Below, piece after piece: positions 1 to 26,902 of a stretch of DNA of 32,000 nucleotides; position 1 is the first letter of the stretch; each line of letters starts with the position of its first letter. The stretch spans positions 660,001-692,000 of the forward strand of contig NZ_AP028907.1 of NCBI RefSeq assembly GCF_036323395.1, read 5' to 3'. The stretch is from Pyrodictium abyssi. GTDB lineage: Archaea; Thermoproteota; Thermoprotei_A; Sulfolobales; Pyrodictiaceae. A program made the translations under genes and the position numbers. The notes beneath the pieces were generated by a model. That model searched no databases and was not told the DNA's origin. It saw only the letters and a program-made list of their open reading frames with translations.

Positions 1-509
1 TCCATGGTTATCTTCTCCGCAGCCGCCACCACGTCGTCGACGCTCCTCTTGGTCTCCTTGCCGTCGGTGAAGAGGAATATGGTGCCGTACTTCTCCGGCG
101 GCAGCGTCAGCTGGTTCACGTAGCGCTCCACCACGGAGGCGGCCGCCTCAAGCGCGTCGGCCATAGCGGTCATGCCGTAGGGCCGGTTCCTCTCGAGGCT
201 CTGGCGGAACACCTCCAGGGCAACGTTCCGGGGGGACACGGGGAAGTAGACGCGGCCATCCTGCTCGACTATCTCCACGTCGTCGCTGTACCAGACGAAG
301 CCAACCTGGAACGCGGGAGCCATCCTGCTGCGGCCGAGCCTCCGGAGAAGCATCTCCACGAGGTCTGCGAGGTGGAACCACTTCCCCCGGTAGTCGTAGG
401 TCTTGGGCTCCATCATGCTAAGGGAGCGGTCTAGGATGAAGACGACCAGGACTGTGTAGCTGAGCGGGCGCCTACGCAGCAGCTGCAGCGCGAAAGACCG
501 TGACACCAT
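1..509 (-). CDS. von Willebrand factor A (vWA) domain protein, C-terminus cut off by window edge
   Basis: Hand translation of the minus strand from ATG at 509-507 gives MVSRSFALQLLRRRPLSYTVLVVFILDRSLSMMEPK...RPYGMTAMADALEAA...TIFLFTDGKETK. The DxSxS, T and D spacing is that of a MIDAS motif. GGAGG lies 6 nt upstream of the ATG. The ORF is absent from the track because it has no stop within the window. Confidence 0.8.
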   Translation of the reverse strand, partial: MVSRSFALQLLRRRPLSYTVLVVFILDRSLSMMEPKTYDYRGKWFHLADLVEMLLRRLGRSRMAPAFQVGFVWYSDDVEIVEQDGRVYFPVSPRNVALEVFRQSLERNRPYGMTAMADALEAAASVVERYVNQLTLPPEKYGTIFLFTDGKETKRSVDDVVAAAEKITM

Positions 510-569
510 GACCAGCCTCCACGAGTTCTACGGGTGGGTGCTCCCGGGGCCGCGCGGGCAGCGCGAGGG

Positions 570-1376
570 CTAGGAGGCTTCCTCCCCGAGGCCTGTAGCC
601 TCGCCCTCTCCCCCCGCACGCTGTAGCAGTGTTACCACAGATATACTACCCGCTATATTAGCTACTACAAGACCCTTATCACTCGATACTACCAGCCGCG
701 CAACGTCGCCGCCGCCCACCGCGTCTAGGGCCTCGACTAGCCGGGCAAAGGCGTCGGAGAGGGCCCGGGCGAACACGACAGCCTCCTCCTCCTTGAGGCC
801 CTCAGAGTCCAGCACACTGCCCTTGGAGAGGTCTATCGCTACGCTGCGTAGCCTACCGGTTAGCCGCGCCCCGCCGCCCTGAGCCAGGTTCACGAGCTCG
901 AGGAGCTCGACGAAGTAGTCCCCTAGCTTGCCCCCGGGGACACGGGGCTGGAGGGTGGCGGGGAACACGCTCACCAGGGAGACTATGATACGGTTTATGA
1001 TGCGTGAGAGGGCTTCGCCCCCGTACTCCTCTATGAGCTTGCCCTCCGCCTCCGCCTCCAGGTAGAGGCGGCAGCCGCTCCCACGCGTGACCCCAGTAGC
1101 CCGGACCACGCCGTGCATGTCGCCGCGGAGGATGAACTCCACCCTGTCTATCCCGGCGCTCGTCTCCACCTCTACGCGCAGGCTGTCGTACTGAGAGGAC
1201 GCGAAGGTGAGCACTATTATCCCGCGGCGCTCGCCTTTGCCGGTGAGCCGCGCAGCCCCGGCCACGAAGGACGCTGGGTCGCGGGCGGCGAGCAGCCGTA
1301 TCACCCTATCGCAGGGAGCCGCTACGTCGAGGACAGCACTCCTCTTTACAGTGGCCAAGGCCTTGGAGCCCAACAA
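570..1376 (-). CDS. hypothetical two-domain protein: N-terminal SRPBCC/CoxG-like region, C-terminal Roadblock/LC7 (MglB-like) domain
   Basis: ORF track, 268 aa. TTG start with a TATA-like ATATTAATCCTATACA about 25-35 nt upstream on the minus strand. The C-terminal stretch EEAVVFARALSDAFARLVEALDAVGGGDVARLVVSSDKGLVVANIAGSISVVTLL fits the Roadblock/LC7 pattern. The N-terminal ...CRLYLEAEAEGKLIEEYGGEALSRIINRII resembles the end of CoxG/SRPBCC folds (weak, by eye). It sits 60 nt upstream of the vWA gene on the same strand. Confidence 0.6.
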   Translation of the reverse strand: MLGSKALATVKRSAVLDVAAPCDRVIRLLAARDPASFVAGAARLTGKGERRGIIVLTFASSQYDSLRVEVETSAGIDRVEFILRGDMHGVVRATGVTRGSGCRLYLEAEAEGKLIEEYGGEALSRIINRIIVSLVSVFPATLQPRVPGGKLGDYFVELLELVNLAQGGGARLTGRLRSVAIDLSKGSVLDSEGLKEEEAVVFARALSDAFARLVEALDAVGGGDVARLVVSSDKGLVVANIAGSISVVTLLQRAGGEGEATGLGEEAS

Positions 1377-1537
1377 ACCAATTCCCCATGTATAGGATTA
1401 ATATGTCTTGCCACAGGCCCCTGGCGCAGCCGCCCTCCCGGGAGAGCAGAGGAGGACGCGCCAAAGCCTGGATGGAGAGGCGCCACGCAGGGGAGAAAAC
1501 GGGGATACGCCACCATCTAGGCCGGGGTGCTAGCGCG

Positions 1538-3457
1538 CTACTTCTTCTTGCGCCTTACGCCTCCCTGGCGTGACAGCAGCATCAGCCCGCCCACCGCTAT
1601 CAACGCTATCACGAGCGCGGCCATAGCCGGGCGGCTGCCGAGCCGAGGCCCCTCCGCCGTGCCGGCCGCTGGCTGTGTAGCCGTAGCCGGTGCCCCCGCC
1701 GAAGCCGCAGTACGAGTGCCCGCCGCGCTAGCCGGTGCCGTCGCGTTACACTCGCCGGCGACTGTAACGGTTCTAGTTTTCTCAAGGGTCTCCGTCACAG
1801 TCACCTCCCTGGTGACAGTCACGGTCTTGACTAGCACCGGCGTCACTACCTTCTGCTCGGGCTTGAAGAACTTGGCTATTACGACGCCGGCGGCGACAAG
1901 GTTGTCTACGCGTATCTCCGATGTCGTCCTTCCCTCCTGGCCGCCGTAGTATATCGAGATGTAGGGGACTGCTCGTAGCCGGACTAGCGTACGGTCCTGG
2001 TCGCCCAGTAGCTCGAGGCACCCCTTCTCCGAGAGCCCCAGAGTAGCGCGGCCGCGTATACTCACGTTGGACTTTAGGGCGCCGTAGGCTATACCGTGGC
2101 AGGTTATCTCCAGGGGCTCGTCAAGCACTATCGTCGCTATGGTGGTGTTGCTGTCAACGTCCTTCAGGTCTATCACGTTCACCTCTAGCACGACGTTGCA
2201 GGGCACCTTGGTGTACTCTAGGGTCGCCTCGAAGGCTATGTCGTAGCGCCCTATGTTCAGCGACATTATGGACGGCACATCTATAGTGGTGCGGAACGAG
2301 GCTATAGGCTTACCGTCCATGCTTATCTCTACACGGGTGTAGATGGAGCCTATACCGGAGACCGCCTTAGCCAGCTGCGTGTATATGAGGTCAGCAGCGC
2401 TGAAGGCCATTACGAAGCCCTTCTCCGTGCCTATCACCAGCTGGGAGCCGTCCGGGCTAACAGCCATGTCCGTGATCGAGGCCAGCGTCACCCTGGTTAT
2501 GCCGAATAGCGCGAGGCTGCCACGGCTGTACTGGAAGAGGTACAGGTTACCGTTAGTGTCTGCTGCTATGAGGTAGCTTCCAACCACCGCTATAGAGGTG
2601 ACCATGGTGTCGAGGTTGTAGAACGAGAGAACCGTGCCGTCGCGGACGGATATCAGATAGAGCTTGGTCACGCCCTGCCCACGGTCAACAACCGCTGCCG
2701 CCGCTACCTCGCGGCCGAGCGCGAGATCCACCAGCTCGTCGCCTAGGTCCACCGTGGTCCAGACCGGCTTACCCGCGATAATCGATACCATTGCTACGTG
2801 GCCGTCGCGTGTCCCCACGAGTACACGCTCTGTGTCAGGAACCTGTATTATCTCGACGACCCCCTCGTAGGGCTTGCCGTCGCTCCCCGCTAGGGTTATC
2901 TTGTCCACTTGGCGGAGCTCCATAGCGCCGGTTACTCCCTTCATCCACTCGTAGACGTAGAGCCGCGCCTCACGAGACTCGCCCGCCACTAGGAACCGGG
3001 AGGTCGCCCATCCCGTGCTCACGAGGTCGCCCTGCAGGCTACTAGTACGCGTCACCTCCTTGCCGGACGTGGTGTCGAGCACGTAGACGTAGTGCCATAT
3101 CTGCCCAGCGACTACAGCCACGAGCCGGTCGTCCGGCGAGAACGCTGCATCGTAGACAGGCTCGCCTATAGCTAGCCCCCACTTCTTGCCCCCATCCGGG
3201 TCCACCAGCATGGCGCCGCCAACCGTACCTATTAGCAGGTACTTACCGGACTCGCTCCACACAAGCCTGGTAACACCGTAGTCCAGGGCGAGATTCCATA
3301 GCGGCTTTAGCTCGCCGACAACAAGCTCGCCCTCCTGCCCCGCCGCCTTACCGTCCTCGGCCAGCACTGTGGACGACAATACTGGCAGCAAAACCACCGC
3401 CAATAGTACGATAGCAGCTACTACAGAGGAACTAGCCAGCCTAGAAACCAGCGTCAT
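1538..3457 (-). CDS. membrane-anchored extracellular beta-propeller (PQQ/WD40-like repeat) surface protein
   Basis: ORF track, 639 aa. ATG start preceded by GGAGGGAGTGATAGAGG. N-terminal hydrophobic signal or anchor (SSVVAAIVLLAVVLLPVLSSTVLA). Repeated beta-strand/DG units (for example LLIGTVGGAMLVDPDG, VLVGTRDGHVAMV, LIAADTNGNLYLF, LVIGTEKGFVMAF). Thr/Val stalk (TVTVTREVTVTETLEKTRTVTV), Ala/Thr-rich linker, C-terminal TM helix and RRKKK tail. Confidence 0.75.
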   Translation of the reverse strand: MTLVSRLASSSVVAAIVLLAVVLLPVLSSTVLAEDGKAAGQEGELVVGELKPLWNLALDYGVTRLVWSESGKYLLIGTVGGAMLVDPDGGKKWGLAIGEPVYDAAFSPDDRLVAVVAGQIWHYVYVLDTTSGKEVTRTSSLQGDLVSTGWATSRFLVAGESREARLYVYEWMKGVTGAMELRQVDKITLAGSDGKPYEGVVEIIQVPDTERVLVGTRDGHVAMVSIIAGKPVWTTVDLGDELVDLALGREVAAAAVVDRGQGVTKLYLISVRDGTVLSFYNLDTMVTSIAVVGSYLIAADTNGNLYLFQYSRGSLALFGITRVTLASITDMAVSPDGSQLVIGTEKGFVMAFSAADLIYTQLAKAVSGIGSIYTRVEISMDGKPIASFRTTIDVPSIMSLNIGRYDIAFEATLEYTKVPCNVVLEVNVIDLKDVDSNTTIATIVLDEPLEITCHGIAYGALKSNVSIRGRATLGLSEKGCLELLGDQDRTLVRLRAVPYISIYYGGQEGRTTSEIRVDNLVAAGVVIAKFFKPEQKVVTPVLVKTVTVTREVTVTETLEKTRTVTVAGECNATAPASAAGTRTAASAGAPATATQPAAGTAEGPRLGSRPAMAALVIALIAVGGLMLLSRQGGVRRKKK

Positions 3458-3727
3458 CCTCTATCACTCCCTCCGGTAAAAACCACACGCAGGGTCAGAC
3501 AGACTAAAAGCCTAGCCTATTCAATACCAGAGCACTGTAAAATACACCAGTGATACCCAGATAGCACCTAGACTCGGGAGCAATAGCCTAGAATAGCCGC
3601 AATCCAGTGAGCCAGAGCAAGCCCCCGAGAGGGAACCCCGTAGAGCCGCACAGCAACGAATCCTATGGAGGCCTGTAGCTAGGGCTCGGACAGTTATCTA
3701 AGGGGCAAAGAGTGCTAGTGCAAGATG

Positions 3728-3741
3728 TTTAAATTTAAAAA
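3728..3741 (-). terminator. candidate oligo-T archaeal terminator within the perfect palindrome TTTAAATTTAAA
   Basis: The minus strand reads CTTTTTAAATTTAAAC about 50 nt downstream of the stop at 3791. TTTAAATTTAAA (3728-3739) is its own reverse complement. Archaeal termination commonly uses T-runs. Confidence 0.3.
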
Positions 3742-3790
3742 GAGGTGCCCGGGGCTTAGGGGCCGCCGCCCCAGCGAGGGGCTACGCCCG

Positions 3791-4303
3791 CTAGGAGACG
3801 CTGAGTATCTTGAAGTGTAGTATTAGTGGCACGTTGTCGAACAGTAGGCCCTCCGGTAGCTCGAATCTTACTTCTGCGCTGAGGTTGTACCAGTCGTTGA
3901 CCCACTCGTCGTTGTCTATTACTATTATCTTCTTAGGGTCGTCTAGTGTTAGCACTGCCTTTATCTCCTTGTTAGTGCCCTTCTTGTAGAGTATCAGTGT
4001 TAGGTACTTGAAGTACTGGCGTAGCTGTGGGACGTTGTCTATCCATACGGCAAGCTTGGTCACGTTAACCTGTGTATACCGCTTTATTGCTACTACATTA
4101 GTCTGTGTATCCATGCCCTGTGCGCCAGCCGCGGCGTTTATGTCTATTACCTTAGTGGGGTTGAGTATGTCTACGGGCTCGCTTACTGCCTGGGCCTCGC
4201 CGGTGGCGTAGAAGCTGTTCATTTGGCTCTGAGTGGTGGCGAAGCCCGCTAGGAGGGCGAGGGCGGCAGCCCCTGCGACCAGGGCAGCCATTGCGAGGAC
4301 CAT
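3791..4303 (-). CDS. small secreted/anchored protein, paralog of 6806..7417; possible TasA/camelysin-like (SipW-type signal) jelly-roll subunit
   Basis: The ORF track gives 3791..4399. I prefer the internal ATG at 4303 (MVLAMAALVAGAAALALLAGFATTQSQMNSFYATGE...), which puts the signal peptide at the N-terminus. CTATATAC lies about 47 nt upstream of that ATG. A TTATAAAC box sits too close to the 4399 ATG for that codon to be transcribed. The shared block with 6806..7417 is described in findings. Confidence 0.7.
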   Translation of the reverse strand: MVLAMAALVAGAAALALLAGFATTQSQMNSFYATGEAQAVSEPVDILNPTKVIDINAAAGAQGMDTQTNVVAIKRYTQVNVTKLAVWIDNVPQLRQYFKYLTLILYKKGTNKEIKAVLTLDDPKKIIVIDNDEWVNDWYNLSAEVRFELPEGLLFDNVPLILHFKILSVS

Positions 4304-4530
4304 TTCGCGGCCATATATCACGGTATACACCCTCCCGGCTCTGCATGTATATAGCGCTAGATGGCTTAAGTAATAATAGCAGTTTCTACCACGTACCATG
4401 ATTGGAAATGTTTATAACTAGCTGTACGCGGGGGTGAAGATAGTATAGTGTGCTTCAGTGTTATCTCCTAGGGGTGAATGCGCTAAAAGAAGGCATGTAG
4501 TTCTGTTTTCTCTCCGTCTTACGGTTCAGC

Positions 4531-5115
4531 CTATGCGATTTCCCCGGTGTCGTATACGGTGAGTAGTGCCTCCTTATGGGATAGTAGTGTTCCGAGGATG
4601 TTCTCGGCCTGGCTGGAGCTTAGGGGCTTACCGAGCTGCGCTGCTGCCACTATTCTGCCGCTGCGTACTGCGAGGAAGTAGTCGCTATCAGGCAGCGTTA
4701 CCCTGAGGAGCACGGAGCGGGCGCGGAGCTTGCCGTAGTCGAAGCCCGTGGGGTGGCCGCGATAGATCACTGGGGCCTGGATCACGTTGTTCATCACGTA
4801 GCTGATGTCTGCTAGCTGTTCTGAGAGCCTCTTGTTCCAGGAGCCATGGTCTATCCAGAGCCTCGGGGCCGGGCTCGCCGGTGCCCTGGACTCCTCTCTC
4901 CGGGGCCCAGCCGGTCCTCTGCGTAGGAGCTTCAGCATGTTGTCCCCTGTGCGGGCTACGGTTAGGCCGCGGGCGCGGGCCCAGGCCTCTATGAGGGGCT
5001 CGGCCTCAGGGTCTACCGCTACTAGTAGCTCGCTTAGCTTCTCGATGCTGTCCTCTATCTCGCGGTAGGGTATGAAGCCCCGGTACCCGCGTAGGTCGAG
5101 CTGCGGGCCCGCCAT
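4531..5115 (-). CDS. hypothetical cytoplasmic protein with a C-terminal DUF4388-like module
   Basis: ORF track, 194 aa. The ATG at 5115 is 1 nt from the stop (5117) of the upstream gene, suggesting translational coupling. The C-terminal segment is SDYFLAVRSGRIVAAAQLGKPLSSSQAENILGTLLSHKEALLTVYD. Confidence 0.65.
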   Translation of the reverse strand: MAGPQLDLRGYRGFIPYREIEDSIEKLSELLVAVDPEAEPLIEAWARARGLTVARTGDNMLKLLRRGPAGPRREESRAPASPAPRLWIDHGSWNKRLSEQLADISYVMNNVIQAPVIYRGHPTGFDYGKLRARSVLLRVTLPDSDYFLAVRSGRIVAAAQLGKPLSSSQAENILGTLLSHKEALLTVYDTGEIA

Positions 5116-5116
5116 G

Positions 5117-6631
5117 CTAGCTCACCTCTCTTGCCAGCTGTGCTGCCTCCTCGAGCACGGTCTTGACCTGGTCCCGGCCCTCTACTACGGGGCCGTAGCG
5201 GGGCGCGATTCTCTCGATGTCGAGGCTGCGCACCTCCTCGACCCACCTGGCTATCGCTGTGTGCCTAAGCGTGCTCGAGAGGTATGCACGGAGGGCGTCG
5301 CGGAGCAGCCTCCTGTCCGCGTACCAGACCCCGGGCGGGGTGAGGAACCCGAGGACAGGGCCGGTGAAGAGTGTCTTCGACACCGGGTCGTAGACCGTGA
5401 GCATGCCGCCGCAGCTGCCGGCGGGTATGATGCGTAGCTCGCTGCGGCCTAGCCTGGCGCGGCTACCGCTGAGCGGCACCGTCGCCACCCTGTCGGGCTG
5501 CTCGAGGAGGGCTGCTAGCTGGGCCCAGCTGTAGGGCGGTGCTAGCACCTCCGCGGGGGACTCGGAGGCGAGCCTGGAGAGGAGGGGCTGCGTCACAGCG
5601 CTCGCGTCGCCCACGACGACGATGCGTATCTGCTCCATGTCTCCTACTAGGCCGCGTATCATCTGGCCCCAGTCCGGCGGCCCCGTGGGGTCTATGACGG
5701 CATACTCGTAGCCGCTGCCTACTATGTAGGTGTTGAGCGCCAGGCCGCCATACTCTGGGCGGCCGCCGGGCCACAGCCTGTAGACGGCGTGGCCGCCGTC
5801 CTCGTAGACCGGCTGGGGCGCGTTCACCCTGGCGCCGCGTGGGGCGCCATCGAGGGCCCAGGCTAGTACGCGTACGCGGTGGCTCGGCGGCCTCTGGGCT
5901 ACCCGTAGAGCCTCCTCGCCCTTCGCGCGCCGGCCGTCCATCTCGGCGTAGACGCCGGTTATCCTGCGGCCACGTATGACGAGGCGGGCGAGGTAGTGGT
6001 ATTCGCGCAGCATACCGTGTATCTCGACGACGTACTCGCCGGGCCCGAGGGCTGCTACCACCCGGTAGGCCGCCTCAGTGAGCACGTCCCTCACGGGGGT
6101 GAAGCTGTCGTAGAAGACGAGGGGCGCGTCGTGAACCCCCTCGGCAGCTAGCTCGTTGTCCGAGCCCGTTATACCGGCCTCGGGCCGGGCCCCCTCCACC
6201 ACCTCGGCTATAGCGTCCCTTATCCCCTTGACGAGCATGCCCGTGGCTGGTGAGAGCTTGCCGCCCCCGCCGCCGCTCACTATGACGTGGACTCCTTCGC
6301 CCACGTTTACGACGCTTATCACCAAGACGAGGGAGTCTATGCCGCGGCCGAGGAGGAGTACCAGGGCGTTCTCGAGGCGGTAGAGCCTCATGTCCAGCCT
6401 CATTACCCTTGCTCCAAGCTTGAACAGACCTAGGCGGCGGGGTACACGGAGCACAACGTAGCCGTCGCCTACCTCTTCTACGCCCTCGACCCTGGAGAGT
6501 ATGCGGTTAAAGTCCCGTAGAAGCGAGTGCACGCTCTCAGCGTCCAGTGGTATGACAAGCGGCTCTACCTGGCTACCGCCGCCTAGTAGTCTCGCTAGCG
6601 CTTCACCTCTGCTCGACAAGGGCATCAACAC
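5117..6631 (-). CDS. hypothetical multidomain protein: SRPBCC-like N-terminus, DUF4388-like middle module, C-terminal flavodiiron/MBL-like domain lacking metal ligands
   Basis: ORF track, 504 aa. GTG at 6631; an ATG at 6625 with GGAG 7 nt upstream is the likelier start. The middle module is YHYLARLVIRGRRITGVYAEMDGRRAKGEEALRV. The C-terminal half follows the MBL/FDP strand order (LNTYIVGSGYEYAVIDPTG...IRIVVVGDASAV...RIIPAGSCGGMLTVYDPVSKTLFTGPVLGF...IERIAPRYGPVV), but the HxHxDH-type and later His positions are substituted. Confidence 0.65.
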   Translation of the reverse strand: MLMPLSSRGEALARLLGGGSQVEPLVIPLDAESVHSLLRDFNRILSRVEGVEEVGDGYVVLRVPRRLGLFKLGARVMRLDMRLYRLENALVLLLGRGIDSLVLVISVVNVGEGVHVIVSGGGGGKLSPATGMLVKGIRDAIAEVVEGARPEAGITGSDNELAAEGVHDAPLVFYDSFTPVRDVLTEAAYRVVAALGPGEYVVEIHGMLREYHYLARLVIRGRRITGVYAEMDGRRAKGEEALRVAQRPPSHRVRVLAWALDGAPRGARVNAPQPVYEDGGHAVYRLWPGGRPEYGGLALNTYIVGSGYEYAVIDPTGPPDWGQMIRGLVGDMEQIRIVVVGDASAVTQPLLSRLASESPAEVLAPPYSWAQLAALLEQPDRVATVPLSGSRARLGRSELRIIPAGSCGGMLTVYDPVSKTLFTGPVLGFLTPPGVWYADRRLLRDALRAYLSSTLRHTAIARWVEEVRSLDIERIAPRYGPVVEGRDQVKTVLEEAAQLAREVS

Positions 6632-6805
6632 TCCATAGCCGTTGTCTAGCCTATGATACCGCTCTAACCACGAGCCTCGCTTATAGACCCTCCCAGTATC
6701 ACCCTTATAAGCCGCTATACCAGGTAGCGCATAGACCAGCTAGTGTTACCGTAGCTGTACGCCACACTGCACGCTAGCAGCCAGGCCAGCCAGAGGCGCT
6801 GGGCC

Positions 6806-7417
6806 CTAGGGGGCTCTCATGGCTTCCTGCTGCTCCACGGATGACTCGAACAGGCTGGACGCGTTCACAGCAACCACGATCGGTATCATGCCGTCCGGCG
6901 GCCTCATGTGGATCTTGCCTAGCCTATACTCCACTTCTATATCTATGTGGCTTAGACTACCCGGCTCGCACGAGATATCTATCCTAACGCGAGGATGCAG
7001 CAGGTCAAGGAGCCCCAGCTGCTCTCCCCCAGCATCCCGTAGGACCAGCTTCAGGCTGTCGACCTGCTGGCGTAGCCTCTCAGCGTTAACCAGCCACACG
7101 TCGATGACTAGCCTGCTCTTGTTCCCCCGCGTACAGGCTACCGTCAACCACTCGCGTATGCTCCCAGCGCCCTCGGGCCCGCGGGTAGGTACGTGTATGC
7201 CAGGCTTAGCAGCTATAACCAGCCCGGAACCGCTATACTTATTATTGTAGACCGTGGTCGATATGACGAAGTCTATTTCTGCTCCACTCGCAGCTGAGCC
7301 CCCAGCGAGGGCGAGGGCAGCAGCCGAGGCAACCAGCACCACCAGGGCTAGGGCCGCGGTGACCCACCGCGGCCCCTCTTCACCCCCCTCCACGGGCCAT
7401 ATGTGGTTCTTAGCCAC
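6806..7417 (-). CDS. small secreted/anchored protein, paralog of 3791..4303
   Basis: The ORF track gives 6806..7480 (TTG). The GTG at 7417 is preceded by AAGGAGGACGAGAAGAC (strong SD-like) and leaves 17 aa before the TM/signal segment WVTAALALVVLVASAAALALAGG. The alternative TTG at 7480 lies about 40 nt downstream of GTTATAAAC, so the start is uncertain. Confidence 0.65.
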   Translation of the reverse strand: MAKNHIWPVEGGEEGPRWVTAALALVVLVASAAALALAGGSAASGAEIDFVISTTVYNNKYSGSGLVIAAKPGIHVPTRGPEGAGSIREWLTVACTRGNKSRLVIDVWLVNAERLRQQVDSLKLVLRDAGGEQLGLLDLLHPRVRIDISCEPGSLSHIDIEVEYRLGKIHMRPPDGMIPIVVAVNASSLFESSVEQQEAMRAP

Positions 7418-7606
7418 GTCTTCTCGTCCTCCTTGAGGGCGGGCCCTTCTAGTCCCACTCGCCGCCCAGCTATTTATCAAAGCTGGCTAGTAGGCTGTCC
7501 CTGCAAGGCTGCGCACCGTTTATAACCATGCCTTGTATATATCAGTGTTGCTTCTAGACTGTCGTGCCCTGTCTTATAGCGGTGCTGGGTCAGAGAAGGC
7601 TAAACT

Positions 7607-7651: not shown

Positions 7652-8461
7652 TTGGCCGCTCTCGCGGAGAAACGTACCCAGTTCGGGACCCCCGAGGAGA
7701 TACTGACGGGGCTGATAGCGCTAGCGTCCTCGACTGATGGCATAGACATAGTGGTGGCAGCGCACGAGGGCTTCACCTACGCTGTTAACGCTAGGAACCC
7801 CGAGTACGAGATACTGGCTGACGAGCTCGCCGCGCTTGCTTCTGCTTATCTCCAGGCTATACGCCAGCGTATCCCGGGCGGCGAGGTATATGCGCGGGTT
7901 GTGATGGGCGAGTACGAGGGCAAGGCCATCCTCGTGGCCGATGTCGGCGAGGGGTTCACGTTCCTGGCTATGGGCGAGTACGCTGGGGTCAAGGCTATAT
8001 TCGATCCCGTCCTCAGGGTGATCGAGGGTAAGCCGTTCAAGTGCCCTGCATGCGGAGTCGTGCTAGACATATACGCGGGCCGCTGCCCGGGCTGCGGCCG
8101 CCTAGTGCCTATAACCCAGCCCACGTGCCCCTTCTGCGGCTACACCGTGTCTTCAAGGCCGTGCCCTAACTGCGGCAAGATGCTCAGCCTCTCCGTGTCC
8201 CGTGTAGAGCTCGCCAGGCCCGGCGGAGAGGCTGAGGAGGAGCAGGTGGAGGGCGCCGAGGAGGTGGCTGTGGTGAGGGTGGAGCCGCCGCCGCGGGTAC
8301 GGGCTGCGAGGAGGCTGCTAAAGGTGGTTATCGGCTCTGCCGTGGCGGGGATATACTTCGTGTCCACCTACATACTGGGCGTGAGCCCCGCAACCGCCAT
8401 AGTGGCTGGGCTAGTGCCTCTCGCTACCGTGTTCGCGCTGCTGCTCAGCGAGCCCGGGTAG
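7652..8461 (+). CDS. Roadblock/LC7-like domain, double zinc-ribbon and C-terminal 2-TM anchor protein
   Basis: ORF track, 269 aa, TTG start. The N-terminal roughly 120 aa fit the Roadblock pattern (GIDIVVAAHEGFTYAVNARNPEYEILADELAALASAYLQ...GKAILVADVGEGFTFLAMG). Four CxxC pairs follow (CPAC-x9-CPGC, then CPFC-x8-CPNC). An acidic linker leads to the hydrophobic C-terminus LLKVVIGSAVAGIYFVSTYILGVSPATAIVAGLVPLATVFALLL. Confidence 0.7.
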   Translation: MAALAEKRTQFGTPEEILTGLIALASSTDGIDIVVAAHEGFTYAVNARNPEYEILADELAALASAYLQAIRQRIPGGEVYARVVMGEYEGKAILVADVGEGFTFLAMGEYAGVKAIFDPVLRVIEGKPFKCPACGVVLDIYAGRCPGCGRLVPITQPTCPFCGYTVSSRPCPNCGKMLSLSVSRVELARPGGEAEEEQVEGAEEVAVVRVEPPPRVRAARRLLKVVIGSAVAGIYFVSTYILGVSPATAIVAGLVPLATVFALLLSEPG

Positions 8462-8462: not shown

Positions 8463-8738
8463 ATGAGGGGCATGAGGGGAGGGCTAGAGGGCGTGCCAGA
8501 GGGCAACGGGCTACAGCACTTGATAGACCAGCTGGCCCGGAGGCTGGTTGAGCACGGTATAGCGGCCGGCCGGGAGCACGCTGAGCGGATAATAGCCGTG
8601 CTTGGCGCTGCGCGGCTGCTAGAGGTGGTGGAGGCTCTCGACCAGTCTAGGAGGCTAGTAGAGCTCTACCAGAGGGAGGGTGTCCCGGTGCGGCTACCGA
8701 GGCCCCAGGATGCCGCCGGGGACCGGGATAGGGGCTGA
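8463..8738 (+). CDS. small helical hypothetical protein (possible antitoxin-position gene upstream of the PIN gene)
   Basis: ORF track, 91 aa. It starts 1 nt after the upstream stop and ends 6 nt before the PIN gene. I recognise no AbrB or RHH motif. Confidence 0.45.
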   Translation: MRGMRGGLEGVPEGNGLQHLIDQLARRLVEHGIAAGREHAERIIAVLGAARLLEVVEALDQSRRLVELYQREGVPVRLPRPQDAAGDRDRG

Positions 8739-8744
8739 GGGGCC

Positions 8745-9182
8745 GTGATAGGGTGCACCTACCTCGACACTACTTTCCTGCTGGCACTGGCGTACGAGCG
8801 TAGCCCCTTCTACGAGCGGGCCTCAGAGCTGCTAGAGCAGCTGCGGGGCCGCGGAGACCGGCTTGCCGTATCCCATCTTGTACGCGCGGAGCTCGTGGCT
8901 CTGCTGGCCTCGCGTATCCCAAGCCTCGGCCTCGACGAGGTGTACGCGCTAGCGGAGTACACGCTGTCGCGTGCCGGCGTAGACGTGGCCGATGTGGACT
9001 ACAATGCCGTCGTTAGGGAGGCGCAGCTCTACGCAGGGCTCCTCCGCATGAGGCTTGCGAGTGTACTCCACCTGCTTGCTGCTCTGGCCCTCGGCTGCAC
9101 AGCTATAGCCACCTTCGACGACACCATAGTGTACCGCGCTGATAGTGTGAGGAATACCCTCGGGATAGAGGTTGTACACTAG
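8745..9182 (+). CDS. PIN-domain protein (VapC-like), with the third conserved acidic residue apparently replaced by Ser
   Basis: ORF track, 145 aa, GTG start. The PIN landmarks are YLDTTFLL (Asp 1), VRAELVA (Glu) and IATFDD (Asp 4). Where the usual D-A-L-H-L-A block sits, the sequence reads A-S-V-L-H-L-L-A-A. Confidence 0.7.
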   Translation: MIGCTYLDTTFLLALAYERSPFYERASELLEQLRGRGDRLAVSHLVRAELVALLASRIPSLGLDEVYALAEYTLSRAGVDVADVDYNAVVREAQLYAGLLRMRLASVLHLLAALALGCTAIATFDDTIVYRADSVRNTLGIEVVH

Positions 9183-9282: not shown

Positions 9283-10209
9283 ATGTTCATAACAAGGGGC
9301 CGGACGGTAGGCTTTATACAGCTTGGGCCTAAGACGCTGGGAGAAGCCGTCATAGAGGCTCTCGCGGAGCCTGGCCGTAGGCTGGTCTACTACGCCCCCG
9401 ACGGCTCACAGTTCTACCTTGAAGCCTCCGCCGTTACGGCCGCGTGTGTAGCGGTTACCCCGCAGGAGGTGGTACGCGGTGAGGAGTGCCTAGAGCTCCT
9501 GGCCAGGCGCTCTGGGGACCAGCAGGGCGTCATAGAGGTGGTCGAGCTAAGCGAACAGCAGATAGCTCTCGACGTGAGCAGTAGACCCGACTCCGTGATA
9601 CCGGGAGGGCTTGAGAAGGTACGCAGCGTCTTCGCCAAGCACCGCCAGGAGGAGGCAAGAACGGAGACAGCGCAGAGAACGGCTCCCAGCGGCGAGGCCA
9701 GGGTACCGGAGACTGCCGGGCCAGCAACGGGGGAGGAGACAGAGACCACACCCGTAGCCGAGCCGGCCCCCGGGCCCTCGGGGCCGCCGGCCGGGGCGGC
9801 GGCGGGGGCTGGAACCGAGGCTGTTGAGCTATCCCCTGCGGGGGCTGGCGAGGCCTGGAGGGATATCCTCCGTGTAAGAGGCCTAAGACTATCCGGCACC
9901 TTCAACGTGCTGGCTGTGGCGGCCCTAGCTGTTATGGGCAGGGAGGTTGACGTGAGGACAGGGTCTAAGTCCTGCATAGATGTGCTTGACGACGTGCTTT
10001 CTCTGCGCCGGCGGCTCACGATGAGGTGCCGTGGCGAGGGCGGCGAGGTCTACATCTACGTCGACCCCGGGGCGGGGAGGATAGAGGCCTACTACATGGA
10101 GGCTGGCAGGGCCTTCCTGGGGGCTGAGGCGCTGCGGCGGGCTAGTAGGCTGCGGGCCACCGAGGTGAAGGTCTACATAGACGCGGGCCAGGGGTCCCAG
10201 GGGGGCTAG
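9283..10209 (+). CDS. hypothetical protein with two DUF4388-like modules separated by a Pro/Ala/Gly/Glu-rich disordered linker
   Basis: ORF track, 308 aa, ATG start. N-terminal module: GSQFYLEASAVTAACVAVTPQEVVRGEECLELLARRS...GVIEVVEL. C-terminal module: GGEVYIYVDPGAGRIEAYYMEAGRAFLGAEALRRASRLRATEVKVYI. The low-complexity linker is roughly aa 120-190. Confidence 0.65.
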   Translation: MFITRGRTVGFIQLGPKTLGEAVIEALAEPGRRLVYYAPDGSQFYLEASAVTAACVAVTPQEVVRGEECLELLARRSGDQQGVIEVVELSEQQIALDVSSRPDSVIPGGLEKVRSVFAKHRQEEARTETAQRTAPSGEARVPETAGPATGEETETTPVAEPAPGPSGPPAGAAAGAGTEAVELSPAGAGEAWRDILRVRGLRLSGTFNVLAVAALAVMGREVDVRTGSKSCIDVLDDVLSLRRRLTMRCRGEGGEVYIYVDPGAGRIEAYYMEAGRAFLGAEALRRASRLRATEVKVYIDAGQGSQGG

Positions 10210-10814
10210 GGTAGCTGGAACTCTATCCTCTCGTAGCCTCCGGTGCGGCCGCCGCGCCTACCGTATATCACTAGCGTGTTGTCCCCCACTATCTCCCAGT
10301 CCTCGGTCCCGGTGCCCATGTCTACTGCTAGTATCTTGGAGCCTGGCGGGAACACCCAGTAGGCCTCGTAGCTGTACTCTATCTCCTCGGGCTCGTAGCG
10401 GTTCTCGTAGACGTTGCGGCCGCTCCGGATCGGGGCGCGGAACCTTAGGGCGAAGACTATGTAGACGCGGCTGCGGCTGCCCCGGAACCCTATGTCCACC
10501 ATAGCTACCTTGGGGCGGACGCGCTCCCCGTTGACAACGACCTGCTCCTGGTCTACGAGCTCCTGCATGCCGTAGTAGAGCCGGAGGGTCTCCTCCTCGT
10601 AGAGCCTGGGGTCGCGGAGCACCGCGTCGTAGTAGCCTAGGGGGTCTATGTAGTCGAACGCCAGGTAGTAGGCTATGTAGCCGTAGCCTACGTAGAAGAA
10701 CCCCTGGCCGTGGACCGGCTGTACAGCATCGCTGGCCTCCCTGAGGAACTCGCTGCTAGCGCCCGGGCCTCGGCGTGGGCCCCGCTGGCCGCGCCGTTGA
10801 CGGGGACCTGGCAC
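10206..10814 (-). CDS. hypothetical protein (Arg/Gly-rich N-terminus, aromatic-rich core)
   Basis: ORF track, 202 aa. No family recognised. It is convergent with 9283..10209 and shares a 4-bp CTAG stop overlap with it. Confidence 0.5.
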   Translation of the reverse strand: MPGPRQRRGQRGPRRGPGASSEFLREASDAVQPVHGQGFFYVGYGYIAYYLAFDYIDPLGYYDAVLRDPRLYEEETLRLYYGMQELVDQEQVVVNGERVRPKVAMVDIGFRGSRSRVYIVFALRFRAPIRSGRNVYENRYEPEEIEYSYEAYWVFPPGSKILAVDMGTGTEDWEIVGDNTLVIYGRRGGRTGGYERIEFQLP

Positions 10815-19946: not shown

Positions 19947-21176
19947 CTACCTTAGCACTAGTATTCTGCGTGGCTTCTCGCCCGGCTCGACCGCCAGTAT
20001 CCTTAGGCCTATGACGTAGAGTAGTAGCCAGAGGCCGAAGCCGCCGACCACAGCCGCTGCCTCGACGGGGCTTGCCAGCAGCTCGTATAGCGCCTCAGCC
20101 CGGTACTCGTGGCCCACTGCCTGGACTGCTAGCGCCTCGTAGCTCGGCATAGCCTCGAGCCTCGCCATCTGGCCGGCTACGACCAGCGAGTGTAGCAGCA
20201 GGAAGGCGCCCACAATGCCCGCGACGGAGCTGGCCACCATTGCCGGCCTGCTCGCCTTGGCTCCGGCGTAGAGGCCCAGGGCTACCGGGGCGGCCACTGC
20301 TAGCAGTACGCCGAGCCAGAATACTCCTGCCAGCTCGCCGCTGACCAGCATGTCCCTGGCAACCGCTGCTAGGCTCCAGCCCTTCTGCTGCACTAGGCTC
20401 CACATTACCAGGAAGCCTACAGCAGCAGCCATGCCGGCCAGCTCCTTGGAGACGCCGCGGACACAGCACTCGCGCCACCGCTCTAGGGGCAGCGCGGTGA
20501 GCCTCGTTGCTACCTCGCCTAGGCCTATCGCCGTCCAGGCCGCGCCGAGCATGAACGCTAGCGCTATGTTGAGCACGCCTAGCGGCGCTGAGAACCACGC
20601 TGGCACTGCTAGGTTCTGGCCGAAGGCTAGCGCCAGGTTGTACTCGAGCGTTAGGCTCGCTAGCAGCCCGCCGAGCAACAGGGCGCGGCCGAGCGGCTTC
20701 GCCAGCGCCTCCTCGCCCCTCATGATGGTGTACAGCAGCGTCGCTACCACGAAACCGGCGTACGCTATGTAGAGTATACCGTTCCACGCTATCCTCGCTG
20801 AGGGGTTGAACCCCAGGTATATCCACATGCTGTGCCCGATGTGTGTTAGGTCGGCGAACACTAGCAGTATACCGGGCACCAGCAGCGCTAGCGCGAGCCA
20901 TAGCGTCTTCCTAGCTAGTGGCAGCGCTTCCTCCTCACAGTAGATGCCCAGCCTTATCGCGAGCGCGTCGAACACACCGCCGCTCGATATCGCGAAGAAC
21001 ACGTAGCCGGTTACCATCAGGCCCCAGGGCACTAGCGCGTGTAGCGGCGACGCCTCGCTCAGCGTCTGGTAGCCGTAGACGCCGTAGATGAAGAGTAGCG
21101 TCAGCAGAGCGCCGACGCCCAGGAGAGCGTAGCCCGTCACGCCCAGGCCTTTCTCTCCAGCCTTCCCGCCGGCCAT
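19947..21176 (-). CDS. NrfD/PsrC-like integral membrane subunit of molybdopterin oxidoreductase
   Basis: ORF track, 409 aa, polytopic with about 10 hydrophobic helices. It is the last gene of a three-gene operon, following the 4Fe-4S and catalytic subunits. Confidence 0.8.
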   Translation of the reverse strand: MAGGKAGEKGLGVTGYALLGVGALLTLLFIYGVYGYQTLSEASPLHALVPWGLMVTGYVFFAISSGGVFDALAIRLGIYCEEEALPLARKTLWLALALLVPGILLVFADLTHIGHSMWIYLGFNPSARIAWNGILYIAYAGFVVATLLYTIMRGEEALAKPLGRALLLGGLLASLTLEYNLALAFGQNLAVPAWFSAPLGVLNIALAFMLGAAWTAIGLGEVATRLTALPLERWRECCVRGVSKELAGMAAAVGFLVMWSLVQQKGWSLAAVARDMLVSGELAGVFWLGVLLAVAAPVALGLYAGAKASRPAMVASSVAGIVGAFLLLHSLVVAGQMARLEAMPSYEALAVQAVGHEYRAEALYELLASPVEAAAVVGGFGLWLLLYVIGLRILAVEPGEKPRRILVLR

Positions 21177-21203
21177 GGGTATTCACCCCACCTCCATGAG
21201 CGT

Positions 21204-21878
21204 CTACTTGCCTGTACGGGGCTTGGCTGGGACACGCTGCGGTGGTATGAAGAACAGCTTGGGCCGTGTACCCAGTTCAGGGGCTAGCGTGACCGCCATA
21301 CCGCTCCGTACCGCCTTGGCCACCTCGCTCTCCGGGTCGTCTAGGTCGCCGAACATCCTCGCACCGAAGGCGCAGGCCTCGACGCAGGCGGGTGTCCAGT
21401 TGCTGGATGTGGCGCTGCCACGGTGTATACAGAACGTGCACTTGTCGGGGTAGCCTGGTAGTAGCGCCTCCTTATGGGGCGCTGGGCCCGCTATCCTGCC
21501 GCGGTACATGGTCCTAGCGCCGTAGGGGCAGGCTATGACGCATGCGCGGCACCCGATGCACCTGTTGTGGTCCAGCATCACCACACCGTTCTCGGTGATG
21601 TAGGTGGCTCCGGTCGGGCACGCAGCCGCGCATGGCGCGTTCTCGCAGTGCAGGCACTGTATGAAGTACGTGGTGCCGCTGAACGGGTAGCCCTCTGCCG
21701 GCATCGCTGCTGGCTTTGTGCGGGCGTAGTAGGTGCTGTTGCCCTCTGGCAGCTCTACCCCGTCACCGGTCTGCCTCATCACGTTCTCTCGGAGGCACGC
21801 TATGGTGCACGCCATGCACGTCACACAGCGGTTAAGGTCTATTACCATTCCCATCCTGGCCATAGGCACCGCCTCCAC
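21204..21878 (-). CDS. 4Fe-4S ferredoxin-type electron-transfer subunit (PsrB/DmsB-like)
   Basis: ORF track, 224 aa. Cys clusters: CVTCMACTIAC, CLHCENAPCAAACP, CIGCRACVIACP and CTFC...C..AC. Confidence 0.9.
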   Translation of the reverse strand: MEAVPMARMGMVIDLNRCVTCMACTIACLRENVMRQTGDGVELPEGNSTYYARTKPAAMPAEGYPFSGTTYFIQCLHCENAPCAAACPTGATYITENGVVMLDHNRCIGCRACVIACPYGARTMYRGRIAGPAPHKEALLPGYPDKCTFCIHRGSATSSNWTPACVEACAFGARMFGDLDDPESEVAKAVRSGMAVTLAPELGTRPKLFFIPPQRVPAKPRTGK

Positions 21879-21885
21879 CTATACC

Positions 21886-24729: not shown

Positions 24730-25161
24730 GTGGAGAGGAACGAGAAGCTCGCAAAGCTGCTAGAGAAGGCCCTCAAGCCAATAGTAGACGTACTAGGCAT
24801 CAGCGTCGAGGACGTAGAGAGCCTCGAGATAGACCCCTACGGGCCACGAATAGTACTCGAAGCCCGGCCAGTCAGGCATAGCATCCGCAGCCTATTCCTA
24901 GACGCAAGCCCCGACGGCGTCGAGACAGTAGCAACCCTAGAAGCGCCCAAGGGGCTCAGCAAGAACCGCCTCGAAGAAGCACTAGCAGAGCTCATAGAGG
25001 AGTCCCCAGAGACACAGAGCGTAGAAGAGTACGACGTATCCTACGACCCAGAGGAGGGCGAGGTAACAGTAACCCTGCACGCCCGGCTCCTCGCAGAGCT
25101 ACCAGGCGTGGAGGAGCTGCACAAGCTCCTACAGAGAGCTCTAGAGAGGCTCCAGGACTAA
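24730..25161 (+). CDS. hypothetical acidic protein
   Basis: ORF track, 143 aa, GTG start. Glu/Leu-rich coding-like composition. No family recognised. Confidence 0.5.
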   Translation: MERNEKLAKLLEKALKPIVDVLGISVEDVESLEIDPYGPRIVLEARPVRHSIRSLFLDASPDGVETVATLEAPKGLSKNRLEEALAELIEESPETQSVEEYDVSYDPEEGEVTVTLHARLLAELPGVEELHKLLQRALERLQD

Positions 25162-25224
25162 ACCCTAAAATAGCCCCCACCCAAGGCGATACATTCCCGT
25201 AATGGAGCCCTCCAGCCGGAGGGT

Positions 25225-25451
<227 letters not shown>

Positions 25452-25984
25452 AACCTTATACGGCGCTCTCCCTTTCTAGTCCCGACCGCGATAACGCTCA
25501 CTATGATGCAGTTACGTGACGACATACCTCCGGTTAATACCACATAAGACTCTCAAGGATTTATCGTCGAATATAAAGCTGACACATACCATTTAGAATT
25601 GCATGACCTATTGCGTACATTTCCTAGGCTTAGCTTATTGTGCTGTGTCACCAGGACAAGGTCCCAGTCACTCTATATGAGAGAAATTCAATTATTCTCA
25701 GCAAGTAAAAAAGCTGGGCTTTGATTACAGTACTGGACATCGCTTGTTACGAGCTAGAGTTTACTCTGTCTGGTTCTCCTGCCCCTTCTTCCTTCCGCTC
25801 TTCTTGGTACCCTTTCTCGCCATTTAGGCCCACCTAGCTCTGCTTTTGCGTGTTGAGAGGAGCACTCTACACACATATATTCCAGCGTAAACTGCCAGGC
25901 TACTACGACCTATGAGACGCTCTGCATGATGCTTAGCGCTACACAGCACTACAAGCCATGAAACCGTTTGTCCAAAAGTAGTCA

Positions 25985-26902
25985 TTGATATCAATACAAT
26001 TTAACTTAGTTAGTATTTTATACATAACTAGGCTGATCTGGGTTAATAAATACGTTAATAAATTACGAAACTCTATAGAGAACCGCGTGATAGAGCCTCT
26101 ATGTACAGCTGATGCTGTATGCTTGACGCCAAGTTCTGCTCCGGAGAGTGATATAACATTGGTAGGAATAGGAAATATAGGAGAACAACCTCCCGAAGAC
26201 GAGTTCAAGAATCCAAAACTAACCCTCTTCAATCTTATAAATGCTCTGAAATTTTTCTATTCATTCAAGAGTCTTGAAAAGAAGCTAGGGGTGCCATCTC
26301 AAGTCTTATGGAGGTATACAACGCTGCGTGCTACTCCGGAGAAGGATACAGCTCAAAAAATTCTAGCCAAAATAAAGGAGCTCAAACTAGTTGAGGAGGC
26401 TATTCAGAGGACAGCAGCCGAAAAAGAAGATCTCTGGGCCGTATTCAGTAATCCCGGAGTCCTACAGCTCACCGCTCTCAAGACTCTTGATGAGTTTAAA
26501 AAGACAATAGATGTAGTTCTATCGGCTCCCGACGTTTACTCTGCGGCATTAGCAGCGATGATAGCAGCATACATGAGAGCTCGTTTGTGTCTTCCATCTC
26601 ACACACCCTTTGCAAAAAACGTAATAATAGAGAGCTACATTAATAGTTTTGGTAGTATTGATGCTATAGGACTACCACGTAAATGTATTCCGAAAAAATC
26701 TAAAATATTAATTGCTGCCTCGATACTCAAATATGACACCCTGTCGCCGCTCCTATCTCTGGTGCAGAGAATTGGAGCAGAAGTCAAAGGTGTGGTAGCA
26801 TTAGCGTCTCTCGAAGATGGAGAGCTTCTCAAGAACAAATTACCTCAAGGAATAAAAGTGCTAACAATAATAAAGTTAGATGAGATGAACAAGTACAAAT
26901 AG
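25985..26902 (+). CDS. HTH plus phosphoribosyltransferase-like (degenerate PRPP motif) protein, island cargo
   Basis: ORF track, 305 aa with low-GC codon usage. There is no ATG before aa about 220, so the start is TTG or GTG and uncertain (25985 TTG; GTG at 26087). HTH-like: FYSFKSLEKKLGVPSQVLWRYTTLRATPEKDTAQKIL. PRT-fold pattern: DVVLSAPDVYSAALAAMIAAYMRARL...KILIAASILKYDTLSPLLSLVQRIGAEVKGVVAL, with AAS where the acidic DD of the PRPP loop normally sits. Confidence 0.5.
   Translation: MISIQFNLVSILYITRLIWVNKYVNKLRNSIENRVIEPLCTADAVCLTPSSAPESDITLVGIGNIGEQPPEDEFKNPKLTLFNLINALKFFYSFKSLEKKLGVPSQVLWRYTTLRATPEKDTAQKILAKIKELKLVEEAIQRTAAEKEDLWAVFSNPGVLQLTALKTLDEFKKTIDVVLSAPDVYSAALAAMIAAYMRARLCLPSHTPFAKNVIIESYINSFGSIDAIGLPRKCIPKKSKILIAASILKYDTLSPLLSLVQRIGAEVKGVVALASLEDGELLKNKLPQGIKVLTIIKLDEMNKYK

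Follow-up and report, generated by a model that had tools for sequence, protein, structure and literature searches.

The seven minus-strand genes that open a 32,000-nucleotide (nt) stretch of the Pyrodictium abyssi chromosome (contig NZ_AP028907.1, positions 660,001 to 692,000; this whole stretch is hereafter the window) do not form a single unknown system: the locus combines cannula-family (Can) genes with a membrane-anchored surface propeller and a cytoplasmic kinase-vWA module. Our best explanation, to which we give a probability of about 55%, is that a Ser/Thr phospho-signalling module here carries an additional, cannula-clade layer. Two parts of this explanation are graded on their own. 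That the module follows a phospho-switch logic of the TerY-P/ArnB kind appears, by analogy with those systems, probable; that it is coupled to the cannulae is a tentative suggestion that we regard as possible and somewhat doubtful.

The seven genes correspond to PABY_07080 to PABY_07140 of P. abyssi, and four open reading frames (ORFs) of the window are identical to the P. abyssi proteins PABY_07120, PABY_07150, PABY_07180 and PABY_07230. An earlier reading of the letters alone (the original prediction) had listed seven co-directional ORFs, and these were recovered on the minus strand at 1-509, 570-1376, 1538-3457, 3791-4399, 4531-5115, 5117-6631 and 6806-7480, together with the two tight junctions it had pointed out, of 1 nt between 5115 and 5117 and of 60 nt between 509 and 570; the other gaps between the seven genes span 131-333 bp, and Rfam finds no RNA gene in the intergenic gaps. 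The predicted mixture of extracellular and cytoplasmic products was borne out by hydropathy: three of the proteins are exported or anchored, and their partners are cytoplasmic, the vWA, 268-amino-acid (aa) and 194-aa proteins having no hydrophobic segment. What did not stand was the notion of a single conserved seven-gene system: the four cytoplasmic genes form a module that occurs across Pyrodictiaceae without a Can gene or the propeller. The features are as follows.

1..509, minus strand: vWA/MIDAS protein PABY_07080 (BES81141.1); the window has the 5' part, 169 of 263 codons
570..1376, minus strand: RB268, a 268-aa cytoplasmic protein (PABY_07090), encoded directly upstream of the vWA gene in every locus
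1538..3457, minus strand: 639-aa surface protein (PABY_07100), from Pfam propeller matches and hydropathy
3791..4321, minus strand: Can202, a cannula subunit paralogue (WP_338251989.1 by gene order); the ORF extends to 4399
4410..4418, minus strand: TATA-like element GTTATAAAC, upstream of Can202
4531..5115, minus strand: p194, a 194-aa cytoplasmic protein (PABY_07120), identical to BES81145.1
5117..6631, minus strand: 504-aa cytoplasmic three-domain protein, ODP-like (PABY_07130), from Pfam and a structure model
6806..7417, minus strand: Can224, a divergent cannula-family protein (PABY_07140; WP_338251995.1 by gene order); the ORF extends to 7480
7518..7526, minus strand: TATA-like element GTTATAAAC, upstream of Can224
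7652..8461, plus strand: Zn269 (PABY_07150), divergently transcribed; Pfam DZR, 1e-6
9283..10209, plus strand: RB308 (PABY_07180), an exact match; UniProt name "Roadblock/LAMTOR2 domain-containing"

Two arrangements of the locus in Pyrodictiaceae

Loci were compared on the contigs that carry homologues of the 504-aa protein, by a genome scan and through the contexts of the vWA orthologues, with tblastn searches against the window proteins. Two arrangements were seen. In the first (type A), the divergent Zn269 gene is followed by the genes for a Can224-like protein, the ODP-like 504-aa protein, p194, the propeller, RB268, the vWA protein and a protein kinase; this order is found in P. abyssi and close metagenomic relatives, in P. 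occultum PL-19, in the lineage L006, the locus of which ends within the propeller gene, and in the metagenome-assembled genome (MAG) of Hyperthermus sp. DSY37 (QNYQ01; kinase gene DSY37_03650). In the second (type B), the order is ODP, p194, a PP2C phosphatase gene on the opposite strand, RB268, vWA, kinase, Zn269 and RB308, and the loci contain neither a Can-like gene nor the propeller. Type B is represented by P. delaneyi Su06, Hyperthermus butylicus and Pyrofollis japonicus as well as by nine MAG or metagenome contigs, some of which are short and display part of the gene order only. A minimal core, consisting of PP2C and a polytopic membrane protein followed by RB, vWA and kinase genes, is present in the distant lineage L024.

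Altogether, at least 12 loci have the four cytoplasmic genes and lack the three extracellular ones. Judging from these sequences, the cytoplasmic module is limited to Pyrodictiaceae and close relatives and is an older unit than the Can additions. The original prediction had proposed, as a check, conservation of gene order in relatives, among which it rightly named Pyrodictiaceae; it is the module that turned out to be conserved, the full seven-gene set being absent beyond P. abyssi and its close relatives.

The distribution of the two arrangements follows that of the cannula genes. Cannula-like genes have been reported from P. abyssi, P. occultum (five) and the DSY37 Hyperthermus MAG (four), and from none of the other complete Pyrodictiaceae genomes, P. 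delaneyi included (Sleutel et al., PMC12518558). All three type A genomes are thus carriers and all three type B genomes non-carriers. The type A loci form a clade in 200 of 200 bootstraps of a neighbour-joining tree built from four concatenated module proteins (1023 ungapped columns).

The module and its surroundings differ in how far they have diverged between the two types. The flanking genes of P. abyssi are about as similar to those of P. occultum as to those of P. delaneyi (ABC ATPase, 80.3 versus 80.8% identity; p202, 86 versus 85%; p387, 61 versus 63%), whereas each module protein is much closer to its P. occultum counterpart: ODP, 70 versus 41%; p194, 63 versus 39%; RB268, 73 versus 49%; vWA, 88 versus 72%; kinase, 80 versus 61%; Zn269, 59 versus 44%; RB308, 51 versus 35%. 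Since the module identities differ while those of the flanks are equal, the module appears to have changed as a cassette, and the propeller, Can224 and the can genes to have been gained along with it. As far as the sequences allow one to judge, an island swap, a transfer or accelerated divergence could each account for this change. The correlation between the type A arrangement and the cannula genes is suggestive of a functional coupling.

Proteins of the kinase-vWA module

The gene that adjoins the vWA gene PABY_07080 just beyond coordinate 1 encodes a protein of 347 aa, PABY_07070 (BES81140.1), its position being established through cluster membership and locus tags. The G-loop, the Lys, the HxDxxxxN motif and the Asp of the DFG position are invariant in 22 sequences. 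All matches to PDB sequences are kinases and all are weak (Bud32/TP53RK, E 0.014); in NCBIfam, Bud32 is matched at 3.9e-6. The AlphaFold2 (AF2) model (pLDDT 93.2, pTM 0.91) yields 1480 PDB matches with Foldseek at E<=1e-3, the top 50 of which are protein kinases without exception (50/50). With the support of this model, the 347-aa protein is predicted to be a eukaryotic-type protein kinase. Its C-terminal part is all-helical, and it has a single invariant Cys, so that a zinc ribbon is not part of this kinase.

The kinase also bears on the partners that had been expected for the module. The original prediction had noted that neither a small GTPase nor a MoxR ATPase, that is, no nucleoside triphosphatase (NTPase), was visible, and had suggested looking for one beyond coordinate 1. 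The first part holds: there is no Ras-like GTPase in the 32-kb window, and no Ras/Arf/MglA-type GTPase or MoxR among the called genes (flanks of up to 10 kb on each side, six annotated loci). An NTP-using partner does exist, in the form of the kinase just outside the window, and it is the kinase, rather than a GTPase or MoxR, that occupies the place beyond coordinate 1. In every locus that covers them, the neighbours of the vWA gene are RB268 and the kinase, not MoxR.

The partial ORF of the window encodes residues 1-169 of the vWA protein PABY_07080. The domain and its MIDAS site were correctly recognised (Pfam VWA_2, 1e-7; DxSxS...T...D motif intact), the residues DRSLSM...GMTA...TDG being invariant in nine orthologues, and the protein is the best conserved member of the module, at 63-88% identity.

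The phosphatase of the type B loci is the product of a 277-aa gene that matches Pfam PP2C_2 in all eight orthologues (best 1.8e-6), with precomputed PP2C matches in H. butylicus, P. delaneyi and L024; its sole PDB match is SpoIIE, aligned on the DG...DDAT motifs. Every type B locus that extends over the slot has the gene, as does the distant L024. To our knowledge, PP2C phosphatases are rarely discussed in Crenarchaeota.

The 504-aa protein is modelled as three domains (mean pLDDT 75.6). The two N-terminal ones were assessed by secondary structure only, as the Foldseek result is dominated by the C-terminal MBL domain: residues 25-147 follow a beta-alpha-alpha-beta6-alpha helix-grip pattern consistent with SRPBCC, and residues 156-260 form an alpha/beta domain. 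One homologue is named CoxG by the Joint Genome Institute. The C-terminal MBL domain matches Pfam ODP (PF19583) above the cut-off, at 3.3e-11, and the best Foldseek matches of the model are the chemotaxis sensor ODP (E 1e-13, TM 0.73). The original description of this domain as a ligand-less MBL was accurate. Its alignment contains no invariant His, nor a Glu at the position of the di-iron motif, where P. abyssi has GDASAVT and the type B orthologues have SAEAD or SAEPD. Since the invariant His residues are missing, the domain is predicted to be a non-catalytic sensor or scaffold. Only nine homologues of the 504-aa protein were found among 5.8 billion clusters.

The gene for p194 comes after the ODP gene in all loci that extend far enough, at a distance of 1 nt in P. 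abyssi and with an overlap of 4 nt in P. occultum, and the two genes are apparently translationally coupled. This placement in all loci makes a complex of the two proteins likely. The p194 protein has a TusA-like N-terminal region with an LDxRG motif and a possible DUF4388-like C-terminal region; across the family, DUF4388 is matched by three of 15 members (E 0.015) and TusA by two of 15, all weakly.

RB268 yields sub-threshold matches to Robl_LC7 (0.0024, two of ten members; 0.0013 in a distant member) and to Polyketide_cyc2 (0.061, one member), and thus may combine an SRPBCC-like N-terminal half with a Roadblock-like C-terminal half. The family is rare: a set of 1.84 billion clustered proteins contains eight representatives of it, and two of these are long, repetitive and apparently spurious. 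Zn269 consists of a cytoplasmic N-terminal domain with four CxxC pairs (two zinc ribbons; eight invariant Cys) and a C-terminal transmembrane (TM) region; in type B loci its gene lies downstream of the kinase gene and in the same direction, and is followed by that of RB308. For the UniProt naming of RB308 as a Roadblock protein, neither Pfam nor the PDB sequences provided support. PDB profile searches with RB268, p194, Zn269 and RB308 gave just a weak Roadblock match (3kye, 0.35) and generic zinc ribbons; hhalign comparisons among the RB268, p194, Zn269, RB308 and ODP504 families gave nothing significant (best E 0.05-0.09); and PADLOC and NCBIfam yielded no family for the module proteins beyond weak kinase matches. 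Accordingly, Roadblock in RB268, Zn269 and RB308, as well as DUF4388 and TusA-like in p194, are weak assignments, made by sub-threshold or third-party calls. The Roadblock, DUF4388 and SRPBCC modules of the original prediction fared likewise: the matches recur below threshold, with model secondary structure in addition for the 504-aa protein, and profile searches did not confirm them.

Several observations concern the surroundings of RB308. Zn269 and RB308 are separated (window 8463-9182, plus strand) by a VapBC-like toxin-antitoxin pair, made up of a 91-aa protein and a 145-aa protein with a PIN domain; apart from P. abyssi and its close relatives, only P. occultum and L006 have this pair, and in type B loci Zn269 adjoins RB308. 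The gene for a 202-aa protein, p202 (window 10206-10814, minus strand), neighbours RB308 in the opposite orientation in both arrangements, in the majority of loci that extend to this point; the protein has no Pfam, NCBIfam or PADLOC match and is 81-86% identical across Pyrodictiaceae. Being better conserved than most module genes, p202 could be a further member of the module. In two MAG lineages, L013 (11449-12636) and L015 (20220-21437), the RB308 orthologue carries a long, helical-looking C-terminal extension (396-406 aa, as read to the locus end), and about 3.6 kb are inserted between the PP2C gene and RB268.

Cannula-family genes and the anchored propeller

By sequence, Can202 and Can224 are known members of the cannula subunit family, as had been guessed for the small secreted proteins. 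Each has one N-terminal hydrophobic segment (hydropathy) and a probable start downstream of the ORF start, at GTG 4321 or ATG 4303 in Can202 and at GTG 7417 in Can224. Can202 is a canonical relative: it matches CanX (9h8b, 1.4e-44) and CanA (7uii, 2.6e-24) among the PDB sequences, sharing with them the full-length sequence, a Sec-type signal segment and the donor-strand motif TTQSxxNSFYATG. The NSFYATG stretch, originally taken for a loose reminder of another filament signature, is this N-terminal donor-strand motif of CanX and CanA itself. The cannula-family donor strand TTQSPLNSFYATG appears in Can202 as TTQSQMNSFYATG; Can224 has GAEIDFVISTTVY instead, without NSFYATG.

Can224 is far more divergent. 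Taken alone, it reaches only E 0.64 against CanX, whereas a profile of five orthologues matches CanX over the full length (E 6.1e-6), as well as the DUF1102 protein structure 9bab (E 0.0018). It contains two conserved Cys. BLASTP detects no similarity between the two small secreted proteins; since the Can224 profile matches CanX over its full length, they are distant homologues, and the original term "paralogs" is right as to the shared family and not as to close kinship. The two genes differ also in their history. P. occultum and the Hyperthermus sp. MAG have an orthologue of Can224 in this very position, making it the only Can-like gene held at a fixed slot beside the module. The Can202 slot contains no Can gene in either of these genomes, and Can202 is therefore likely to be a recent insertion in the P. 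abyssi lineage.

Both genes had in fact been catalogued, contrary to the impression that the combination was an unrecognised one. Sleutel et al. (2025, PMC12518558) counted 15 "CanA-like" proteins in P. abyssi AV2, 11 of them in two clusters, and their Suppl. Fig. 3 lists Can202 as CanA-like (E 9e-58) along with Can224 (E 5.7e-7); WP_338251989.1 and WP_338251995.1 are genes 691 and 694 of NZ_AP028907.1 in that work. As gene 692 (WP_338251991.1) is the 194-aa protein, this numbering puts genes 691 and 694 in the window. The major subunit seen ex vivo is CanX (WP_338251948.1), neither Can202 nor Can224 (PMC12518558); CanX being gene 671, the window begins at the tail of one of the two "extensive gene clusters" of that paper. 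The 2025 structures show that the subunits self-assemble with calcium, and cannulae polymerise in vitro with no need for accessory proteins (Sleutel et al., PMC12518558). The genes between the can genes are not mentioned there, the neighbourhoods being described as having no chaperones or dedicated signal peptidases; AF2 models of the cannula-like proteins are given in Suppl. Fig. 5 (PMC12518558).

The Can-like genes seem to have promoters of their own. The TATA-like element GTTATAAAC occurs twice in the 32 kb, against 0.02 copies expected by chance, and each copy lies upstream of a Can-like gene, about 90-100 nt from the probable start; 75-85 nt after each copy there is a GGAGG, followed by the GTG start. 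The exact GTTATAAAC is not kept outside P. abyssi, the core TATAAAC being retained in close relatives. A T-run follows the stop codon of Can202. The separate TATA-like elements suggest one promoter per Can gene, which argues against a single seven-gene operon. For the Can-like genes (window 3458-3790 and 4322-4530, minus strand), 5' leaders of about 70 nt are predicted, with GGAGG about 10 nt before the GTG. Crenarchaeal mRNAs are mostly leaderless, and such leaders are unusual.

More Can-like genes accompany the module in P. occultum, where two lie downstream of the kinase gene, one directly after it and one about 3 kb beyond. The former (L021, 12013-13173) encodes a 386-aa protein with CanX-like N- and C-terminal parts and an insertion of about 200 aa between them; a comparable two-segment Can-like gene of P. 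abyssi (WP_338251974.1) lies outside the window, a few genes past its start.

The third extracellular product, the 639-aa surface protein, was rightly read as a beta-propeller with a TM anchor: it yields many partial Pfam propeller matches, and consists of a signal peptide (a hydrophobic N-terminal segment), the beta-propeller, a beta-rich domain, a Thr/Val-rich stalk, the C-terminal TM anchor (residues 606-634) and, after it, a basic tail with RRKKK. Its orthologues are found only in type A loci, in P. occultum, L006 and the Hyperthermus sp. MAG, where the gene occupies the slot that holds the opposite-strand PP2C gene in type B loci.

Two other features of the window lie apart from the locus. 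An operon at 19947-24429 (minus strand) encodes an 847-aa molybdopterin oxidoreductase exported by the twin-arginine translocation (TAT) route, a 4Fe-4S protein and an NrfD-type membrane subunit, and resembles a polysulfide or thiosulfate reductase. Directly after a tRNA-Ala gene (25225-25301), the fraction of guanine plus cytosine falls to 0.40-0.51 (window 25000-27000), against about 0.63 elsewhere. A 305-aa ORF in this stretch (25985-26902) matches neither Pfam nor PHROG, and the stretch may represent foreign DNA that has integrated here.

A proposed phospho-switch with a possible cannula-clade layer, and its alternatives

When considering what such a module might do, three known systems offer a comparison. 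The TerY-P triad (Anantharaman et al. 2012, as summarised in PMC11090510) is described as the vWA protein TerY together with PP2C and a Ser/Thr kinase fused to a zinc ribbon. The present loci likewise encode a vWA protein with MIDAS, a eukaryotic-type kinase and a zinc-ribbon component together, joined in type B by a PP2C. They differ in that the zinc ribbons reside on the separate membrane protein Zn269 rather than being fused to the kinase, in the extra conserved partners (RB268, the ODP-like protein with p194, RB308), in the type A locus being devoid of PP2C, and in a stable chromosomal position that is not linked to defence or tellurite genes. The second comparison is with ArnA/ArnB of Sulfolobus acidocaldarius, a motility-repression switch that gates archaellum expression (PMC6509490). 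There, too, a crenarchaeal vWA/MIDAS protein acts with a zinc-finger protein, eukaryotic-type kinases and a phosphatase, and controls a surface appendage, which offers a model by analogy of the way in which a kinase-vWA pair could govern the making of cannulae; the partners differ, archaellum genes are not nearby, and ArnB was not recovered in the vWA profile search of PDB sequences. Third, the ODP di-iron chemotaxis sensor of Thermotoga and Treponema (6qrq, 6r9n) is the best structural and Pfam match to the C-terminal domain of the 504-aa protein, in which, by contrast, the metal-binding His are not conserved and the domain is fused to two N-terminal domains, with no chemotaxis genes nearby. 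Because defining features of TerY-P and Arn are absent here (the zinc ribbon is not fused to the kinase, and neither a PADLOC match nor an FHA domain was found), the module is best regarded as a separate variant of the kinase/phosphatase/vWA switch and a member of neither. A literature search found no prior description of a Roadblock/vWA/PP2C/zinc-ribbon module. The suggestion of a signalling component in the original prediction is plausible.

The scenario that we favour can be envisaged as two layers. The invariant core of the first is RB268, the vWA protein with its MIDAS site and the eukaryotic-type kinase, in this order, with PP2C in most lineages; in Pyrodictiaceae proper, the coupled pair of ODP-like protein and p194, the membrane-tethered Zn269 and RB308 belong to it as well. 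The second layer, confined to the cannula-gene lineages, comprises Can224 upstream of the ODP gene and the anchored propeller in the PP2C slot and, in P. abyssi only, the extra canonical subunit gene Can202 with its own promoter-like element. The kinase, with PP2C or another phosphatase, would set the phosphorylation of the vWA protein and/or its partners, upon which the MIDAS site would form or dissolve a complex, in the manner of the TerY-P triad and of ArnA/ArnB. Ligand input would come from the SRPBCC/ODP-like protein, with Zn269 fastening the complex to the membrane. For the cannula clade, we envisage a rewiring of the module towards the cell surface, where it would regulate or anchor cannula production via the propeller and Can224.

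A bolder form of this idea is that the type A cassette (Can224-like protein, ODP-like protein with p194, propeller, RB268-vWA-kinase and Zn269) is the cell-side apparatus of the cannulae. The propeller would then be a nucleation or anchor platform at the cell surface, Can224 an initiator or adaptor that accepts a strand from CanX-type subunits or donates one to them, and the kinase-vWA switch a timer that matches cannula production to growth or division; the gain, loss or transfer of the cassette would have included the can genes, all on one island. In this complete form we consider the idea unlikely.

Several points weigh against the layered explanation. The correlation of type A with the cannula genes may represent one evolutionary event; and, as the module adjoins the can cluster, a single swap or deletion of the island would produce this pattern with no functional coupling at all. 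The module is well conserved in lineages that have no cannulae, so its ancestral role was not cannula-specific. No PP2C is encoded at the locus in the window or in any type A locus; the PADLOC TerY-P models match neither the vWA nor the PP2C proteins; and FHA, the phospho-reader of Arn, is found neither in the window proteins nor in the precomputed Pfam lists of six loci. Finally, the Roadblock, DUF4388 and SRPBCC assignments are weak.

The strongest competitor is pure juxtaposition, in which a housekeeping kinase-vWA unit has can genes and the propeller as mere passengers, the correlation reflecting linkage on one island. Conservation of the module in cannula-less genomes fits this account, as do the single type A clade, the recent insertion of Can202 in the P. 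abyssi lineage alone and the expanding can family, with 15 such genes in P. abyssi and 11 of them in two clusters. It is less at ease with the propeller, which sits inside the module, exactly at the PP2C slot, and with the Can224-like gene, which has one and the same position in three lineages with ODP proteins of just 43% identity. Moreover, the module has diverged far more than its flanks between the two types, which suggests a functional shift or a cassette transfer as a unit. We regard juxtaposition as a possible explanation, and one to be taken seriously, without favouring it.

The remaining alternatives are much less probable. The original view, that the seven genes are one dedicated, operon-like system building a surface structure or matrix, draws on the common direction of the genes, on some tight junctions and on two members being genuine homologues of filament subunits. 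It is improbable given that the set of seven is conserved nowhere beyond P. abyssi and close relatives, that the cytoplasmic four do without the extracellular three in the dozen or more loci described above, that gaps of 131-333 bp, separate TATA-like elements and the T-run after Can202 divide the genes, and that cannulae polymerise in vitro without accessory proteins (PMC12518558). Even less probable is a role in defence against viruses, with vWA, PP2C and kinase as a TerY-P-type cassette. TerY-P-like modules of the same three-enzyme composition are stand-alone defence systems in bacteria (PMC11090510), and the kinase weakly matches the defence-associated kinases MkoA and MAD6. PADLOC, however, has no match for the vWA or PP2C proteins, and no nuclease or other effector is nearby; in addition, the module keeps one conserved chromosomal position, is apparently inherited vertically and has a vWA protein of 63-88% identity, unlike patchy defence islands, and it is this fixed position and high conservation that make a defence role unlikely. 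The idea of a Roadblock/DUF4388-small GTPase system (MglA/MglB-like) or a vWA-MoxR system, with the NTPase encoded elsewhere, can appeal to the weak Roadblock and DUF4388 matches and to the UniProt name of RB308, and is barely credible considering that no such GTPase or MoxR was found among the called genes of the six annotated loci and their flanks of up to 10 kb on each side and that the invariant neighbour is a kinase.

Taken together, these comparisons define a new, lineage-restricted kinase-vWA module along with a cannula-clade variant of it, which comprises the propeller and a divergent Can protein at a fixed position. Few archaeal surface structures are as unusual as cannulae, and the propeller, Can224 and the kinase-vWA switch, in a form found only in carriers of cannula genes, are candidates for starting, anchoring and timing the growth of these tubes. 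Independently of the cannulae, the module represents a lineage-restricted archaeal system of Ser/Thr signalling, as predicted from its composition, with new partner proteins such as RB268.

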